DNA of 11,206 bases from the IMG/VR virus record IMGVR_UViG_2630968808_000005, positions 1-11,206 of that record. One strand, written 5' to 3'. The notes beneath the pieces are model-generated. The model was not told the DNA's origin. It searched no databases and worked only from the letters and a program-made list of their open reading frames with translations. The stretch comes from a virus. Its lineage: Duplodnaviria; Heunggongvirae; Uroviricota; Caudoviricetes. The position numbers were made by a program, and so were the translations under genes. Of this stretch, positions 1,408-9,649 are shown in pieces (the first letter of the stretch is position 1; each line of letters opens with the position of its first letter).

Positions 1408-1797
1408 CTAACATTTTCTTTTTACTTTTCCAACAAAAGCTTTGGTTGAATCCATATTTCCATAACCGGAAATGGTTTTTGACATTAAAACTGTTCCAGT
1501 AGGATGTATTACCCATGAGTCGATAACGCGTTGAGTTTCGCCATTCGCGCCGATTCCTATGATGGAGTTTTTAGACAATGCTTTGTAAGCCATGCCGCCC
1601 GCATCTGTCCCAGAATATGTGATGCTGGCATCTTCACCGTTTGTCTTAATGATGAATGTTCCACTAAAACCATCTTCTTCCGGATGGAAATTATTTCGTT
1701 CTGAATAGCTTATTCCGCGCATATCTCCAACGACCCAGCACTCTGCTGTAGCCCCAAAAGATATGAATAAGAACATAGCAGTAAGAAATTGCTTCAC
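1408..1797 (-). CDS. Hypothetical secreted/periplasmic protein (129 aa) with an N-terminal signal peptide; function unknown
   Basis: GTG start (plus-strand 1795-1797) preceded on the minus strand by a near-perfect Shine-Dalgarno TAAGGAGGT (plus-strand 1802-1810 complement) with ~5 nt spacing. Hydrophobic N-terminus MKQFLTAMFLFISFGATA followed by a predicted cleavage site before ECW. Two Cys in the mature part, one right after the signal peptide and one as the C-terminal residue. No family recognised. Confidence 0.6.
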   Translation of the reverse strand: MKQFLTAMFLFISFGATAECWVVGDMRGISYSERNNFHPEEDGFSGTFIIKTNGEDASITYSGTDAGGMAYKALSKNSIIGIGANGETQRVIDSWVIHPTGTVLMSKTISGYGNMDSTKAFVGKVKRKC

Positions 1798-1914: not shown

Positions 1915-2334
1915 ATGAAGAGGATTATTGGCGTCGTTGCTGGCGCTATATTGTTATCTGGGTGCGCAACTATTGTTGGTGACGAAACGCAGCTTGTGCA
2001 AGTGAACAGCAATCCTTCCGGTGCGAGCTTTAAGGTAAAAGACGAATCAGGCGTGATTGTTGCGCAAGGTAAGACCCCGCAAGGAGTAACTCTTGCCAAG
2101 TCAGATGGTAGTTATTTTGGCAAAAAGAGCTACCAGATCACTATGGAAAAGGATGGGTACGAACCAGTTACCCTGCCAATCAAAGCCAATGCTAATGGCT
2201 GGTATATTGGTGGAAACCTTGTGTTTGGTGGGTTAATTGGTTGGCTTGCTGTAGATCCTTTTAATGGTGGGATGTATACCTTGAAGCCAAAAGAGGCAAA
2301 CGCATCTCTTATACCATCAACAAAGCAAGACTAA
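1915..2334 (+). CDS. Hypothetical lipoprotein (~139 aa from the ATG at 1915; the ORF track start at 1903 is an alternative) with a PEGA-like beta domain and a C-terminal glycine-zipper hydrophobic segment
   Basis: Signal peptide plus lipobox MKRIIGVVAGAILLSG|C. The middle region (GASFKVKDESGVIVAQGKTPQGVTLAKSDG...YQITMEKDGYEPVTLPIKAN) resembles the PEGA-domain pattern. The C-terminus WYIGGNLVFGGLIGWLAVDPFNGG is Gly-rich and hydrophobic. A hairpin plus T-tract terminator follows directly at 2343-2366. Confidence 0.6.
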   Translation: MKRIIGVVAGAILLSGCATIVGDETQLVQVNSNPSGASFKVKDESGVIVAQGKTPQGVTLAKSDGSYFGKKSYQITMEKDGYEPVTLPIKANANGWYIGGNLVFGGLIGWLAVDPFNGGMYTLKPKEANASLIPSTKQD

Positions 2335-2342
2335 TAAATAGG

Positions 2343-2366
2343 ACCCACCTTCAGGTGGGTTTTTTG
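2343..2366 (+). terminator. Rho-independent terminator after the lipoprotein gene; the mnt stop codon sits in its loop
   Basis: ACCCACC (2343-2349), loop TTCA, GGTGGGT (2354-2360), followed by TTTTT (2361-2365). Confidence 0.65.
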
Positions 2367-2602
2367 TACAAAACCTTCAGCGTATCAAACACCATCTTCT
2401 TAACAAGCTCTGACTGCTCATCAGCGAGTCGTTCTGCATCGTCGCGATATCCAGTCACAGGCGATGGTTTTGATAGAGCATCTTGGACGATTTGTAACAA
2501 CTCGGAGTTCATTGATCTCCCATTCGCCTCCGCCCTGAATTTTAATTTCTCCCTTACTTCCATAGGCATACGGAAGTTAAAGTGCGGATCATCTCTAGCC
2601 AT
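2351..2602 (-). CDS. mnt: Mnt repressor (immI maintenance repressor), 83 aa
   Basis: The translation MARDDPHFNFRMPMEVREKLKFRAEANGRSMNSELLQIVQDALSKPSPVTGYRDDAERLADEQSELVKKMVFDTLKVLYKKPT matches P22 Mnt (ribbon-helix-helix N-terminus plus C-terminal tetramerisation helix) at near identity as I recall it. It is divergent from arc across the operator region. Confidence 0.92.
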   Translation of the reverse strand: MARDDPHFNFRMPMEVREKLKFRAEANGRSMNSELLQIVQDALSKPSPVTGYRDDAERLADEQSELVKKMVFDTLKVLYKKPT

Positions 2603-2624
2603 GCCATCACTCCAAGTTAGTGTA

Positions 2625-2653
2625 TTGACATGATAGAAGCACTCTACTATATT
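2625..2653 (+). promoter_or_regulatory. Pant promoter (-35 TTGACA 2625-2630, 17-bp spacer, -10 TATATT 2648-2653) with the Arc operator (2630-2650) between the hexamers; the divergent Pmnt overlaps it on the minus strand
   Basis: Read directly: TTGACATGATAGAAGCACTCTACTATATT. ATGATAGAAGCACTCTACTAT is the 21-bp Arc operator known from P22. On the minus strand, TTGAGA (plus 2653-2658) and TATCAT (plus 2630-2635) with a 17-bp spacer form a plausible Pmnt. Confidence 0.8.
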
Positions 2654-2657
2654 CTCA

Positions 2658-2678
2658 ATAGGTCCACGGTGGACCTAT
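2658..2678. promoter_or_regulatory. Mnt operator (Omnt), a perfect palindrome centred on the Pant start region
   Basis: ATAGGTCCACGGTGGACCTAT, with symmetric half-sites GGTCCAC/GTGGACC, matches the P22 mnt operator and lies just downstream of the Pant -10. Confidence 0.8.
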
Positions 2679-2692
2679 ATTGTGAGGTGAAT

Positions 2693-2854
2693 ATGAAAGG
2701 AATGAGCAAGATGCCGCAGTTCAATTTGCGGTGGCCTAAAGAAGTATTGGATTTGGTCCGCAAGGTGGCGGAAGAGAATGGTCGGTCTGTTAACTCTGAG
2801 ATTTATCAGAGAGTAATGGAAAGCTTTAAGAAGGAAGGGCGCATTGGCGCGTAA
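2693..2854 (+). CDS. arc: Arc repressor, 53 aa
   Basis: [53 protein letters not shown] is near-identical to P22 Arc as I recall it. The start is the ATG at 2693 preceded by GAGGTG; the upstream 21 codons in the ORF track (from 2630) overlap the operators and promoter and are not coding. Confidence 0.92.
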
Positions 2855-2923
2855 AGTTGAAGCCCCAACTGCGGGAACAGTCAGGGCTTCGGTTGTCAGT
2901 AAATCCGTGGAGAAAAACCAACA
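2855..2923 (-). ncRNA. sar: Probable sar antisense RNA (small antisense regulator of ant translation)
   Basis: In P22, sar is a ~68-nt RNA transcribed leftward from a promoter inside the 5' end of ant, across the ant ribosome-binding site into the arc-ant spacer. Here a minus-strand -10 TATACT (plus 2930-2935) lies at the ant start, and the 69-bp interval back to the arc stop fits that size. Ends are inferred, not mapped. Confidence 0.45.
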
Positions 2924-3825
2924 TGAATAGTATAGCAATTTTAGAAGCAGTGAACACCTCTTATGTACCATTCAACGGTCAGCAAATTATCACCGCCATG
3001 GCTGCCGGAGTTGCATATGTTGCGATGAAGCCAATCGTTGAAAACCTTGGAATGAGCTGGTCAACGCAGCAAACAAAACTCATGAAGCAGATTAGCAAAT
3101 TCAACTGTGTTCATATGAACATGGTTGCCGCTGATGGGAAGCTTCGTAAGCTACTCTGCCTTCCTTTGAAGAAGTTAAATGGATGGCTGTTCAGCATCAA
3201 CCCTGAGAAAGTTCGTGCTGACATCCGTGATAAACTGATTCAGTACCAGGAAGAATGCTTTACTGTACTGCATGACTACTGGACAAAGGGAAAGGCAGAA
3301 AATGCACGTAAGAAAACATCTGTTGATGACAGGACTCCGCTTCGTGATGCTGTAAATATGCTAGTCAGCAAAAAGCATCTAATGTACCCAGAAGCTTATG
3401 CAATGATTCATCAGCGTTTCAATGTGGAAAGTATTGAAGAGCTTGATGCATCTCAGATACCGCAAGCCGTAGAGTACATCCACAGGGTAGTGCTTGAAGG
3501 TGAATTTATCGGCAAACAAGAGAAGAAAACCAACGAGCTTTCTGCAAAAGAAGCAAACAGCCTTGTATGGTTATGGGATTATGCCAACCGCTCACAGGCA
3601 TTATTCCGCGAACTGTATCTGGCGCTAAAACAAATTCAATCGAACTATTCCGGCAGATGCTACGACTATGGCCATGAGTTCTCGTATGTTATCGGAATGG
3701 CGAGAGACGTTTTAATCAATCACACACGAGATGTTGATATTAATGAGCCAGACGGACCAACGAATCTTTCCGCATGGATGAGACTTAAGAATAAAGAATT
3801 ACCTCCTTCAGTACATAACTACTGA
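2923..3825 (+). CDS. ant: Antirepressor Ant, 300 aa
   Basis: ATG at 2923 preceded by GGAG (2909-2912). The position directly downstream of arc, the 300-aa size and the N-terminus [21 protein letters not shown]... match P22 Ant as I recall it. The N-terminal extension from 2857 in the ORF track is rejected. Confidence 0.88.
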
Positions 3826-3842
3826 CAGATAACCAACGCAAC

Positions 3843-3868
3843 GACCCAGCTTCGGCTGGGTTTTTTTA
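3843..3868 (+). terminator. Rho-independent terminator downstream of ant
   Basis: CCCAGC (3845-3850), loop TTCG, GCTGGG (3855-3860), followed by a 7-T run (3861-3867). Confidence 0.7.
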
Positions 3869-3925: not shown

Positions 3926-6094
3926 ATGACAGACATTACAGCCAATGTGATCGTATCAATGCCTTCGCAACTCTTCACTATGGCGCGTTCTTTTAAAGCC
4001 GTAGCTAATGGCAAAATTTATATCGGTAAAATTGACACTGACCCGGTAAATCCAGAAAACCAGATTCAGGTTTATGTGGAGAACGAAGACGGCTCTCACG
4101 TTCCTGTTTCGCAACCAATCATCATTAACGCTGCCGGCTATCCGGTATACAACGGACAGGTGTCGAAATTTGTCACCGTTCAGGGCCACAGCATGGCTGT
4201 ATACGATGCGTATGGCGTGCAGCAGTTTTACTACCCTAACGTGCTGAAGTACGACCCGGATCAGTTCAAAACTCAGTTAGAAGCCGCACAAGGGGCGAGC
4301 CTGGTAGGGTATCGCTATAAAGACGCTCCTAACGCTACTGTGCGTAAAGTCTCTGACGTTCTGGACGAGCGTGTAAGCCTTTGGGATTTCCACTGTGACT
4401 CAAGCGGCAACGTCATCCAGCCCGGCCCTAATGTAGACAGTCGTCAATATATTCAGAATGCCATTGATTATCTGAATGCACATGGTGGTGGGACTCTGGT
4501 TATCCCACCAGGGAAGTGGTGGCTGAATTCGTATGGCCGTCCAGAAAAGATTTCCAGCTATGCTGGAGTTATCCAGCTACTCAGTAATGTTGACATCTAC
4601 TTTGAAGCGGGCAGCACCGTCGCTCTGACTACGTTCTTTAATGAAAAAGCGTATTGCGTTTTCTGTGGTTTTAATGGGAACGACCCGGCAACGTCTGCAT
4701 CGCTGAATAACTGCCATATTTATGGTTCGGGCATTATCGACTGCGGGCCTACAAACAAACAACCAATCGGTAGCGCCCTGTGCTACGCCATTGGTACAGG
4801 TAGGTCTTATGATTGTAGCATCCGTGGCATTACCATCACTAATGGAGACCTTACCTGGGCGGCAACTCTGGGCTGGAATGGCTACGGCAATAACACAGTA
4901 GTAGATGGGGTGACGGTAACTAGCTGCAAAAAGACTGATATTGATCGCAACGTGGATCAGTCGTTGTTTTATGTAGGTTGCCCTTATTCTGGTGTCAGAA
5001 ATTGCTACATGAACCCGTCGGCAGATACTGGTTTCGCAAACAGGGTCTCTGCTGGTGTAGAGCTACATCAACATAATACATTCTGCGATAACAATCACAT
5101 GACTGGGTTGATGCGCGGTGTCTATGTGGTTATGCACGGTGCAGAAGCGGCTGGACAAGGTTTGTACATGTACAATATTAGCGTGTGCAATAATACCGCA
5201 AGTGTCGCGGGGCAATTTGTCACCCTGACAGCAGACCAGAAGGTGGCGATCACCCATATACATAACGTGATTATTGCTAATAATATCGCTGTTATTGAAC
5301 CGCCTAAAGATCCAAATCAGGAAATAGGCCGAATATTCGTTAACAGCGAGATGTGGAAGGACACTCCCAGGGACTCTAACACAGAGCGGGTGCTCGTGAC
5401 TGGTAACATTTTCCATTGCCCGATAACTCTGCCAGGGAGCGTCTTCTTTGCTTATAGAATTAGTACCCGTAACTACCAATTCTCAGGGAACATGGTGGAT
5501 GCTCAAAAAATCATGTCAGGGGACGGGCTTGGGGTAACAGATCAACTTGAGCTTCGCAATATCATATGGGATTCATCGAATAGCCTGGGGAACTCATGGC
5601 TCGGCCAGCGGGGTAAAAACACCAACCTATTTGATATTTATGCAGCAGCGGTAGTTAGCTGCCATTTTGATATTACATTGCCGTATGAGGATAGCTCAAT
5701 TGCTCATGTGTTTTACACGCCTGATGGCTGTAGTGTGGATTATACCGTGGTTAAGGTTAATGCTGAGCGAGTGCCGGAGGGCGTCGTAGGTGTAAGGATG
5801 TCTCAAGCAAACCTGGAGAAGGTTTCTAACCATGTGAGTTATCCAGTCACGATTAGCTTCGGAAGTTACGACGCAAATGGCGCTACGTTGTGTTTTAGCG
5901 TAGATACTACATATGGATGGGTAGGTTCTGCTACTGCGATAAGTCACAGTGACAACACAAACATAACGCCTCCTGGTTGTTATGCCGCTACAGAAACCGA
6001 TCAACTTCAAGGAGTGGGTTGGTCGCATACGAGTGGGGCTAAGTCATACAAGCAGAGGGTGCTATTACGTAGCCGATCAACCCTTCCTGTCTAA
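3926..6094 (+). CDS. Tailspike protein, 722 aa: P22-type N-terminal head-binding domain fused to a different beta-helix receptor-binding/depolymerase body
   Basis: Residues 1-~120 ([78 protein letters not shown]...VLKYDPDQF) match the conserved head-binding domain of P22 gp9 and relatives. The remainder does not match the P22 endorhamnosidase as I recall it, and the protein is longer (722 vs 667 aa). GGAG Shine-Dalgarno at 3914-3917. Confidence 0.9.
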
Positions 6095-6146
6095 GGCGTG
6101 ATGGATAGTTTATTGTAGCAGCTTGTTTTACTGAGAATCTTCACGT

Positions 6147-6177
6147 AATAAAAAATCCCCGCTAGGCGGGGATTTTC
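6147..6177. terminator. Bidirectional rho-independent terminator between the convergent tailspike and gtrC genes
   Basis: ATCCCCGC (6155-6162), loop TAG, GCGGGGAT (6166-6173), flanked by AAAAA upstream and TTT downstream; the U-tract is better for the minus-strand (gtrC) transcript. Confidence 0.65.
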
Positions 6178-6194
6178 AATCTTTTATAACACAA

Positions 6195-7658
6195 TTAATT
6201 CATGCAATCTTTTTTGCTAAAATCAACAACTATATTTACCCCTTCATGGTATAGCTTATAGTCTTGATTACTGGTTACTAACTTATAATTGCAAAAGTCC
6301 CTGAGTGAGCTATTGACTATTTCACTATTATACCCAGGGTCCATTTGCTTCAAACCGTTTATTCCCATGTAATAATGCGCCCACATCCAGTTTCCAAAAT
6401 AACTAACTACTAGCCCATTTAGCAATGGGAAATTCTTGGATGAGTTTGTAAGTATGCTTGATCTGGGTGGCTCACCATTAAAAATAATATAGTTTGTATT
6501 GTAATCGAATTCTTTCGTATCTTCTTTTATTGAATCTATTATTTGTTTATCAACAGAGGATTGATGCTTGCTGGAATTAGCATATGCGCATGTAAAAATA
6601 ATCATGTATGCATACATCGGCAGAACAACCAATGACGGTACTTTGCTTTCTTTGCACGCCAGAGTCGCCAGGAATAAGACAAAAAGCAAATAGGAGCCAA
6701 CGCCTATGTACAACCGTGAAAAACCTACCATTGGGTTATCAAGTGGTAAAAGAGATCCTATCGTGGCGACTGGAGTCACAATTATTACAAGTAAAGAAAC
6801 AACAAAAATAAACCAACCAAACTTACCTTTATATCCTCTTAAATACCTATAAGAAATTACCAAAGCGGAAAGTAAGGAGATTGCAATAAGAACTGGCATG
6901 ATGAATTCCCCCATGCCATTAGGTAGTATTACCCCTTCTATATGATAGTAATAGGATTTTAAGTTACTGATTACTGTGTTCAGAAGATCAGCAGAAACCC
7001 TTGGGTGGTTAGCACTGTGAGAGGACTCCAAAGTCAAAGGCAATATCACCTTCATATAGAGAGCCAGCCCTAACAAAGTGCTTAAAACGCGTATAAACGA
7101 TAATTTTATTATTTCAAAAGGAGATGCCAGCTTATAAACATCATAAAAGAATAGCAGAGATGTAAAAATAAGTATTATATTTACAGATGCTTGATATAAA
7201 CACATTACACCAACCACTAAAGCCACCTTAATTAAAAGGTTGATATAATGATTATTTGATAAAGTAAATAAAAAAGAAAAAGACAGAACAGCGGAAAACA
7301 GGATTGTCAGGCTATCAAACCTGTAACTAACAACCTCAACAATAAATGGATTTATTAAAAAAGACAAAGGGAGCAGGAAAAGCCCTTTTTTGTTATTGAA
7401 AAACTCTTTGCCAAATCTATAAAAAACCCATGACAGCATGGCACAAGCAACAAGGAGCGGAGCAGGGGCAATGTCTGCCATTGTGCCACTAAACATAATA
7501 ACAGACATCAATATATCAGACAGAGGACGCCCATCTTCCCACCAAAATCTGTAACCTAGCGTAGACCGCCCAATATCGTCAATGTAATAAATGTTTGCTA
7601 ATATGATGGGGGCCACCAGTAGCAAAATAATGATGAAATATTCCTTTATTTGTTTCAC
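6195..7658 (-). CDS. gtrC: GtrC-type serotype-specific O-antigen glucosyltransferase (polytopic membrane protein, 487 aa); specificity unknown
   Basis: Third gene of the gtr operon, with its start overlapping the gtrB stop (ATGA). Highly hydrophobic with many predicted TM segments and a C-terminal soluble domain. Visibly AT-rich compared with its neighbours, as is usual for gtrC genes. Assignment is by synteny and topology; GtrC proteins share little sequence similarity. Confidence 0.7.
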
Positions 7659-8578
7659 GCTTCATCCCCATTTTTTAAAATATATCTAGGCCTGTTCTTG
7701 GATTCGGTGTAAATCCTCCCGATGTACTCACCAAGCACCCCAATGCCAATAAGTTGTACGCCACCAAGAAACAGAATAGAAACCAGCAATGAGGGGTAGC
7801 CTCGCACCGGATTGCCAAAGGCGATAGTGTCTATAATCATCCATGCACCATAAATGAACGACAGGCCTGCTACCAACAATCCAATATAAGTCCACATGCG
7901 CAGAGGGAAGGTAGAGAAACTGGTTATCCCCTCAAGGGCAAGGTTCCATAACTTCCAGCCATTGAATTTTGAATCACCGGCAATCCTTTCAGCCCTGGTG
8001 TATTCAACGATATCAGTGTTCCCGCCAACCCAGCTAAGAATGCCTTTCATAAAGAGGTTGCGCTCAGGAAGAAGCTTGATGTTTTCCACCACCGCTCGGG
8101 ACATCAGGCGGAAATCACCTACATTCTCCTCAATTTTAGGATTGCTTATTTTATTGTGGAGCTTATAGAACCACTCAGCCGTTTTTCGCTTCAGTCTGCC
8201 ATCCGTTGAGCGGTCAGATCGTTTAGCAAGCACCATGTCAGCACCTGCTAGCCACTTTTCAATCAGATGAGGAATGACCTCAATCGGGTCTTGCAGGTCA
8301 ACATCAATAGGAATAACGGCATCACCTGTTGCATGGTCTAACCCTGCAAACAATGCGGGTTCTTTACCAAAGTTTCGTGTAAATGACAGCGGAACAACTA
8401 GAGGATCTGAAACAGCCAGAGCGTTAATGATTGACTCCGTAGCGTCTTTGCTGCCGTCATTTATGAAAACAATTTCCACTTCGTATGGCTTCAACTCTTC
8501 GAATTCACGTACCGTTTTATAAAAAATTGGTATTGCTTCTTCTTCATTGAAGACAGGAACTACAAGAGATATCTTCAT
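7655..8578 (-). CDS. gtrB: GtrB bactoprenol glucosyltransferase (GT2 family, UDP-glucose:undecaprenyl-phosphate glucosyltransferase), 307 aa
   Basis: N-terminus [20 protein letters not shown], the DxD-type motif in [10 protein letters not shown], and two C-terminal TM helices are typical of GtrB/DPM1-like enzymes. The start overlaps the gtrA stop. Confidence 0.9.
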
Positions 8579-8937
8579 TTCGCATCCCTAAAGACAATGA
8601 ACTTTGAATAGACGAAACCGCACACCAGGCTGATGGCGGAGAAGGTGACAAGAGTGACAATTGGAGGAAGTGAACATCTATCAGCAGCCCATCCAACAGT
8701 AGCACTCAGTGTTCCCATGAACCCGACATATAACATGTAGCGCATCGTTGTAGTTGATGCTTTGAATGTGAATTTTGCATTCGCGAAGAAGCTAAAACTC
8801 ACAGCCACAACAAAACCTGCGAAGTTTGCAAGAGCTTGGTTTGTATGCGCGGCATAGATACAAACACCAAAAACCACCCAGTGTATAAGGGTGTTCAGCA
8901 CTCCAATCGAGGTGTACTTTGCAAATAGCTTTAACAT
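8575..8937 (-). CDS. gtrA: GtrA flippase (small 4-TM membrane protein, 120 aa)
   Basis: 120-aa hydrophobic protein with four predicted TM helices; first gene of the gtrABC operon, with the size and position typical of GtrA. Confidence 0.85.
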
Positions 8938-9649
8938 TTCTTCTATCAGCTAATAATCAAAGGCATGAAGTCTATCATCCAAGTCTCAATCGATCGATAC
9001 TTGCGTTAGTTGATGAGAAAAAACTCTGGCACACAAGGCTTTGCAATGGCTTGCAAGGTTTTGTTTCTATCAGATAGTGGTTAAGGTGGATCACTCCACC
9101 TTTTCATCAAGCCAATCCGCCCACCACTGCATCATTTCTCTGCGCTTAACGTAGTGGATGCATCACTATCACCCTGTAATGGCTTATTACTGGTTTGCAG
9201 ACAGGTAGGCATGAACATATGCCTGCGCATGAAGATGGAACTAGTCCGGATGCGATATTTTTGGTGATCACGTACATCATCAACGAAGTGCGTTATGGTG
9301 AGTTTGATGACTACCCGCTGAAGTGAAAATTGTGTTGTGTACCAAATTGCGTACCAAACTAAAATCACAAATCATGAAACCCTTGTTCATGGCGGTTCTC
9401 AGGGGTGTTGCGCGTAATCGTGAAACAAAAAGGTAGATTGTTGCTTACCGTCATTCATCATTAGGTTAAATCCGTTATTTCTGCTGTCTGCCAGAGTATC
9501 AAATATCACCGTACTAATCAGCTTTAGCGCCACAAGATCATGTCAGATAAAAATGAGAGGGTAGTCACATTTTCTTGCACTTTATTCCAGCCAGTTCATA
9601 AGTATTTCCGTAAAAAGAACAGCTATTTGAAACTCCTGAGGGTTTGCTG

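Follow-up and report, generated by a model that had tools for sequence, protein, structure and literature searches.

A tailspike gene at the right end of a P22-like prophage raises two linked questions: what kind of enzyme, if any, its receptor-binding body represents, and which glycan that body would recognize. The body of a tailspike determines the O-serogroup open to a P22-like phage; such bodies also serve as reagents for serotyping and diagnostics and as swappable parts in engineered phages and tailocins. We addressed both questions by comparing the gene, its product and its neighbors with characterized phages, protein structures and complete Escherichia coli genomes.

Genomic context of the tailspike gene

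The window, meaning the whole stretch of 11,206 nucleotides analyzed here, takes in the right end of an E. coli prophage of the P22-like type. A gp16-type DNA-transfer protein is represented by its C-terminal part, followed by two small open reading frames (ORFs) at the position of P22 sieA, for which PADLOC returned no match. The features that frame the tailspike gene are the following:

2351 to 3825: immI region (mnt, arc, sar and ant), upstream of the spike
2351 to 2602, minus strand: mnt (Pfam Repressor_Mnt)
2625 to 2658: divergent promoter-like sites
2693 to 2854, plus strand: arc (Pfam Arc)
2855 to 2922, minus strand: sar antisense RNA (Rfam RF00262, 95.6 bits)
2923 to 3825, plus strand: ant (Pfam P22_AR_N/C)
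3843 to 3862: ant terminator, just downstream of ant
3926 to 6094, plus strand: tailspike gene, the gene 9 equivalent of the P22-like prophage (ORF with ATG start, 722 aa)
9413 to 9459, minus strand: prophage/host junction (attR side), first 16 sbcB codons (MMNDGKQQSTFLFHDY), then phage DNA

The spike occupies the position expected of a P22-like tailspike: it closes the late operon, with immI before it and the O-antigen conversion genes and the attachment site beyond it. The same gene order (ant, tailspike, gtrC-gtrB-gtrA) is found in P22, and in phage HK620, which is also P22-like, the spike gene likewise closes the late operon. HK620 is annotated with remnants of mnt and ant only, whereas immI is intact in the window prophage. 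On the host side, the empty sbcB-dacD site of E. coli isolate 602 gave a BLAST match that starts at 9413, where host DNA resumes, and dacD and sbmC follow the junction with 97 to 98.5% identity to E. coli. The prophage is integrated in the 5′ end of sbcB. This gene, rather than a tRNA gene, holds the attachment site, and the window contains no tRNA. An earlier note, made from the sequence alone, had judged the context to look like Escherichia/Shigella, and mnt-arc-sar-ant upstream with gtrCBA and dacD/sbmC downstream bear this out as a P22-like prophage in E. coli.

Two further observations concern the chromosome around this site. Among complete genomes, JBEHAAB-19-0176 has the nearest dacD flank, and the same site in sbcB is occupied there by a lambda-like siphophage, unrelated to the window prophage, with sbcB annotated as full length beside the integrase; this genome is uninformative on host lineage. 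From the gene layout of the empty site, we estimate that the host O-antigen cluster lies ∼55 kb from the spike on the sbcB/his side; the longest contig that encodes an identical spike is 39.6 kb.

The ORF itself is real, with an ATG start and 722 codons, and the earlier estimate that its product is about 55 residues longer than P22 gp9 proved exact (722 versus 667 aa). Over its full length the protein matched the PHROGs family phrog_20900, “tail spike protein,” while an NCBIfam search gave no match for either the spike or the neighboring GtrC.

A P22-family anchor joined to a body unrelated to P22 gp9

Domain searches, alignments and a structure model divided the spike into an N-terminal anchor, a neck and a C-terminal body:

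3926 to 4264, plus strand: head-binding (tail-anchor) domain, aa 1 to 113 (PF09008, E value 3.5e-66)
4265 to 4525, plus strand: linker and conserved neck/beta-helix cap, aa ∼114 to 200 (66% identical to HK620)
4526 to 5836, plus strand: predicted specificity-determining right-handed beta-helix body, aa ∼201 to 637 (AlphaFold2, Foldseek; 38% identical to HK620)
4955 to 4957, plus strand: D344 codon, equivalent to HK620 catalytic D339 by pairwise alignment
5060 to 5062, plus strand: E379 codon, equivalent to HK620 catalytic E372 by pairwise alignment, inside the VELHQH motif
5837 to 6070, plus strand: C-terminal beta-sandwich domain, aa 638 to 715 (PF22424 HK620_9_C, E value 1.5e-15; pLDDT ∼95)

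Residues 1 to 113 covered the Pfam PF09008 model over its full length. This segment is 94% identical to the anchor of HK620 and 76% identical to the homologous anchor of P22, and groups with the E. coli branch of P22-like anchors. The anchor had been described in the earlier note as almost the same as that of P22; its P22-family origin holds, but the near-sameness is to HK620. Past the linker, the departure from P22 gp9 that the note had described was evident. Matches to P22 gp9 in the PDB covered residues 1 to 121 only, identity beyond aa 120 was 15 to 20%, and no homology to the gp9 body (residues ∼125 to 666) was detected. The spike is thus mosaic as proposed, its anchor being of P22 type and its receptor-binding body not. 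Bodies of the P22, Sf6, CUS-3 or epsilon34 type were rejected, as only the N-terminal 113 to 196 residues are held in common with them. The match to the Sf6 tailspike extends to aa 194 to 196, that is, through a neck segment shared with the Sf6 spike.

Two recurring junctions bound this neck. Megablast matches to other E. coli prophage spikes, in ∼1,100 genomes, end at nucleotides 339 to 357 of the gene, an endpoint that marks a recombination junction at the end of the head-binding domain. The second junction falls at about aa 200, after the conserved neck, which is 55 to 85% identical across all members of the family described below, irrespective of anchor type.

The body is predicted to be an HK620-type hydrolase

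In a phmmer search of PDB sequences, aa 110 to 715 aligned to residues 1 to 597 of the HK620 tailspike (2vji) with an E value of 3e-142. HK620 was also the sole full-length match by tblastn among 50,697 phage records (49% over aa 1 to 717). Identity to HK620 falls along the protein, from 94% in aa 1 to 113 through 66% in aa 114 to 200 to 38% in aa 201 to 722, with 42% over the whole body, which is 12 residues longer in the window. Among the characterized tailspikes compared, HK620 alone matched over the full length, and none was nearly identical.

The earlier note had proposed structure prediction of the trimer; we built an AlphaFold2 model of the monomer on a 54-sequence family alignment. The pLDDT was mostly >90 over the body, and the model adopted the HK620 beta-helix fold: the best 26 matches of a Foldseek search against the PDB were all HK620 tailspike (target-normalized TM score, 0.90 to 0.92; 40% identity), with the next fold at a TM score of ≤0.65. 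The catalytic residues of HK620 are D339 and E372 (PMC8217332). The equivalent residues of the window spike, D344 and E379, were invariant in 53/53 natural family members, the sole exception at these positions being the engineered D339A/E372Q HK620 crystal construct in the PDB; the VELHQH motif around E379 was likewise invariant in the family alignment. In architecture, catalytic pair and VELHQH motif, the protein therefore resembles HK620 gp9, an O18A1-specific endo-N-acetylglucosaminidase represented by PDB entry 2VJI and ∼30 related entries.

Taken together, the end-to-end homology to HK620, the predicted fold, the HK620_9_C domain and both carboxylates make the enzyme class readable as a hydrolase. 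The body is clearly predicted, by sequence and model, to be an HK620-type O-antigen endoglycosidase, and a lyase or deacetylase is unlikely. This narrows the earlier view that neither activity nor specificity could be read from the gene and that both might be new: for the class this view did not hold, and for the fine glycan specificity the family association described below points to the O18 group.

The spike falls in a distinct clade of the HK620 family

A protein search recovered a broad family graded from 98% down to ∼35% identity. The nearest clade consists of the window protein, P0003 and P0004 (86 to 87%) and P0005, P0006, P0008 and P0016 (70 to 81% over the body). In a neighbor-joining tree of the bodies, this clade formed a distinct deep branch, sister to the clade of the spike of isolate 602. 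The window clade holds ∼28 member sequences versus ∼200 in the isolate 602 clade, which is itself represented by only one complete genome. Relatives at 50 to 55% identity occur in Enterobacter roggenkampii and Enterobacter chengduensis, and Enterobacter and Citrobacter members are nested in the family at 34 to 55% identity.

The last four of these clade members (P0005, P0006, P0008 and P0016) bear another anchor, Tail_spike_N (PF18668). Since bodies of the same clade carry different anchors, the body has moved between phages of different tail types. In addition, the identity profiles of P0005 and P0006 are patchy, with 100% blocks in a 75% background, a pattern that indicates recombination inside the spike gene.

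We then searched 5,426 complete E. coli genomes. Megablast of the gene returned matches to the head-binding domain only and none to the body, and a sensitive blastn search with the body gave one partial match of 67%, in isolate 602. A spike of the window clade was absent from all 5,426 genomes, including 69 of serogroup O18. The spike of isolate 602 (NZ_OW968111.1; 716 aa; represented by P0010 to P0015), uncharacterized and from an O18 strain, is thus the closest in any complete E. coli genome. It is 62% identical over its full length, has the same domain order and catalytic residues and also belongs to a P22-like prophage; that prophage, however, is integrated at argW instead of sbcB and lacks a gtr operon, and its spike falls in the other clade.

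HK620-family bodies with the same catalytic pair are also found in TSP1 (gp167) of Kuttervirus EP75 and in Kagunavirus K1ind1, which are virulent phages with other N-terminal anchors. The window body is 34 to 36% identical to these two, and no spike of known specificity reaches 40% identity to its beta-helix (aa 201 to 637). By these comparisons, the protein is a new and so far uncharacterized member of the HK620 family in a distinct clade. Module swapping among such spikes and the link of the HK620 family to O18 are already in the literature (PMC10408124, PMC8217332).

HK620-family bodies are associated with O18 hosts

Because no characterized spike is close enough for direct transfer of specificity, we approached the substrate by association in complete genomes. 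The HK620 tailspike acts on O18A1/O18A (PMC6024685). Activity on O18A has been demonstrated experimentally for EP75 TSP1, which is 45% identical to HK620 and retains both catalytic residues (PMC8217332). Hosts of serotype O18:K1:H7 support the growth of K1ind phages. EP75 TSP1 and K1ind1 show that O18-group antigens can still be targeted at 35 to 45% body identity to HK620.

The O18ab/ac wzy gene was present in 69/5,426 complete E. coli genomes. An HK620-family spike body was found in 16 complete genomes by searches with the HK620, LR-31 and window bodies. Of these genomes, at least 15 are O18ab/O18ac hosts as confirmed by wzy; the sixteenth, CFSAN051542, may be the same as the one unlisted O18 record. 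The O-antigen cluster of isolate 602 has an “O18 family” wzx, and LR-31 has the same O18 cluster.

A further signal came from the genes next to the spike:

6152 to 6176, plus strand: strong stem-loop terminator separating the tailspike gene from the convergent gtrC (11-bp stem, 6 GC pairs, flanking A/T runs)
6195 to 7658, minus strand: gtrC, serotype-specific O-antigen glucosyltransferase, 487 aa, 35 to 37% GC (PF14264, phrog_4829)
7655 to 8578, minus strand: gtrB, bactoprenol glucosyltransferase (PF00535)
8575 to 8937, minus strand: gtrA, Und-P-glucose flippase (PF04138)

The three gtr genes form one operon, with stop and start codons overlapping at 7655 to 7658 and 8575 to 8578. P22 has a terminator at the same position between tailspike and gtrC, but its GtrC is 26% identical to that of the window, and the paired GATC phase-variation sites upstream of its gtrA are absent from the window. 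In HK620, a different O-antigen modification gene, not gtrABC, lies downstream of the spike. Across sequenced phages, GtrC proteins were at most 26% identical to window GtrC. By megablast, relatives of gtrC occurred in only four complete E. coli genomes, all of them O18. The GtrC of LR-31, which adjoins another HK620-family spike, is 76% identical to window GtrC at the amino acid level, a match to an O18-associated protein that points to a tight relationship. The window gtrC itself was found in none of the 69 complete O18 genomes.

On these associations, the substrate of the spike is somewhat more likely than not to be an O-antigen of the O18 group (O18ab/O18ac type) or one close to it. The earlier note had already doubted that the target is the Salmonella O-antigen cleaved by P22, and such a target is very unlikely. 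The most serious competing explanation keeps the enzyme class but holds that the window clade has been retargeted to a non-O18, probably rare, E. coli O-antigen or to another polysaccharide, and we give it appreciable, though less than even, weight. The clade is a separate deep branch missing from all 5,426 complete genomes, O18 strains included; the family extends into Enterobacter and Citrobacter; and the helix that carries the substrate groove shares <40% identity with every spike of known specificity. Moreover, window GtrC differs by 24% from the O18-associated GtrC, and GtrC is typically serogroup specific according to a review (PMC7685785). However, all E. coli members whose host is known or can be inferred are linked to O18, namely HK620 (O18A1), EP75 TSP1 (O18A), K1ind (O18:K1:H7 hosts) and at least 15 of the 16 prophage copies, and the neighbor-joining tree spreads these O18-linked members over three deep clades that lie to either side of its midpoint root. 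Absence of the clade from complete genomes carries little weight, because it is expected of a clade so rare relative to its sister.

One further observation counts against an O18 target. The stretch from aa 441 to 480, aligned to HK620 residues ∼440 to 480, shows 20% identity with insertions and deletions and includes the 470 to 472 region. According to PDB entry titles, structural work on HK620 targeted D470, N471 and S472 with deletion mutants, and that region is not conserved in the window spike. This divergence would bear on fine specificity, not on family membership. It is conceivable, although on balance unlikely, that the spike together with its private GtrC marks an O18-related O-antigen variant not yet described, or that the pair underlies the glucose-branched O18 subtypes (A1/B1). 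If so, the spike would tell glucosylated from unglucosylated O18, and lysogenic conversion would block superinfection.

The spike is identical on 12 contigs, and its neighbors are intact

The 722-aa spike was identical on the 12 contigs read, which include JAQA01000030.1 (GCA_000809145.1, E. coli), the contig that corresponds to the window, and the same gtrCBA genes adjoin it on every one of the 12. The downstream flanks of these contigs vary, with pdu genes in some and cobU in others. Among the six identical-spike contigs listed, four come from NCBI assemblies and two from ENA metagenome assemblies. The 722-codon ORF has no frameshift and its own terminator, and the neighboring ant, arc, mnt, sar and gtrABC are all intact. 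A gene decaying in a defective prophage, without current function, is accordingly very improbable; the window does cover only the right end of the prophage, but an intact gene that is 100% identical in differing chromosomal flanks, among intact neighbors, argues against decay.

A model for spike function

Sequence, structure model and analogy with HK620 together support, with good confidence, a gene in which a P22-family anchor is joined to a diverged HK620-type O-antigen hydrolase body in a P22-like (Lederbergvirus-type) prophage. Residues 1 to 113 would dock the spike, presumably a trimer, onto the phage tail. The body, a predicted right-handed parallel beta-helix followed by a C-terminal beta-sandwich, would bind O-antigen along a groove of each subunit. 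The D344/E379 Asp/Glu pair would then hydrolyze the O-antigen as the virion moves down to the outer membrane, and by analogy with HK620 the O-repeat would be cut by endo-N-acetylglucosaminidase chemistry. A receptor binder without hydrolytic activity, or a body with lyase or deacetylase chemistry, is extremely improbable: beta-helix spikes of similar shape do include lyases and esterases, such as that of G7C (PMC8217332), but the end-to-end homology is specific to the HK620 hydrolase, the carboxylates and VELHQH are invariant, and no esterase or lyase family was detected in the spike by Pfam, PHROGs and PDB searches. In the lysogen, the adjacent gtrABC genes would glucosylate the O-antigen, probably the same polymer that the proposed hydrolase attacks.

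The HK620 family is among the best-studied models of protein-glycan recognition, to which the window spike adds a distinct clade; this result is useful but incremental to a known system. In complete E. coli genomes, prophage-borne bodies of this family occur almost exclusively in O18 strains, and a specific GtrC family travels with them. The pairing of spike and GtrC may therefore serve as a testable lead on the origin of O18 sub-antigens that have or lack the glucose branch.

Tailspike bodies across anchors and phages

The receptor-binding body of the window tailspike was found on a second type of anchor. In four relatives from metagenome contigs that belong to the window clade of the HK620-family tree (P0005, P0006, P0008, and P0016), a body 70-81% identical to that of the window spike is fused to Tail_spike_N (PF18668), an anchor of the TSP1/Gp66 type; the contig bearing P0016 is 105 kb long. 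The window clade therefore also extends to phages whose spikes attach through another type of anchor.

A junction at another position was detected in an O18 strain:

L011 (E. coli LR-31 locus, NZ_AP027520.1), 4721-6853: LR-31 prophage tailspike

This protein is essentially identical to HK620 gp9 over the first ~250 residues and divergent beyond (63% overall). The end of near-identity marks a clear recombination junction inside the beta-helix, well beyond the anchor domain.

Regions flanking the window tailspike

The following features are located upstream and downstream of the tailspike:

Window 1408-1797 (-): 129-aa ORF; phrog_2651, unknown function
Window 1915-2334 (+): 139-aa ORF; phrog_6823, unknown function; weak PEGA match
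Window 2855-2922 (-): sar antisense RNA, between arc and ant; Rfam RF00262, 95.6 bits
Window 6195-7658: gtrC; 35-37% GC

The sar RNA between arc and ant matches RF00262 over its full length, and the window prophage therefore has a complete immI region. In contrast, mnt and ant are annotated only as remnants in HK620. Where P22 has sieA, the window carries the two small ORFs. Inspected by eye, the 129-aa protein has a signal-peptide-like hydrophobic stretch at its N-terminus, and the 139-aa protein contains an LSGC motif resembling a lipoprotein lipobox. Neither ORF had a PADLOC match or an NCBIfam match above the cutoff. Both are candidate superinfection-exclusion or moron genes.

The GC content of gtrC is below that of the tailspike (45-49%) and host DNA (about 50%), which suggests that gtrC was acquired horizontally from a donor distinct from that of the remaining prophage. 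P22 has two pairs of GATC sites ahead of gtrA, and these pairs are linked to Dam/OxyR phase variation. The corresponding window region (8938-9100) lacks them and contains only single GATC sites, at 8992 and 9089; its first ~65 nt also occur in the LR-31 gtr cassette. The window gtr operon may lack phase variation of the P22 type.

Prophage end and integration site

Two features mark the right end of the prophage, where phage DNA ends with 8938-9412:

Window 9132-9368 (-): degenerate ORF, between gtrA and the host junction
Window 9413-9459 (-): host sbcB 5' end at the prophage junction

DNA matching the degenerate ORF is annotated in other genomes as a frameshifted fragment, either of an "S24 family peptidase" or of HumD, so the ORF looks like a decayed umuD-like gene. 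The integration site lies inside the 5' end of sbcB. On the attR side, just the first 16 codons of the gene are left; they run into AQHP and then a stop codon. At the same site in JBEHAAB-19-0176, we observed an unrelated lambda-like siphophage; the integration module thus appears to be common to different phage types. A full-length sbcB is annotated next to the siphophage integrase, and sbcB therefore appears to be reconstituted on the attL side.

O18 wzy lesions

Signs of O18 wzy disruption were observed in two strains, the first at the following locus:

L020 (E. coli KL53 locus, NZ_CP030919.1), 47994-49138: O-antigen and spike observation

An HK620-like prophage spike (91% at the nucleotide level) is present in KL53, where the annotation marks O18 wzy as a pseudogene with a frameshift and an internal stop. 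The O18 wzy match of QL57EC falls into two parts, under which an IS1 transposase is annotated. These wzy lesions could represent O-antigen loss under phage pressure.
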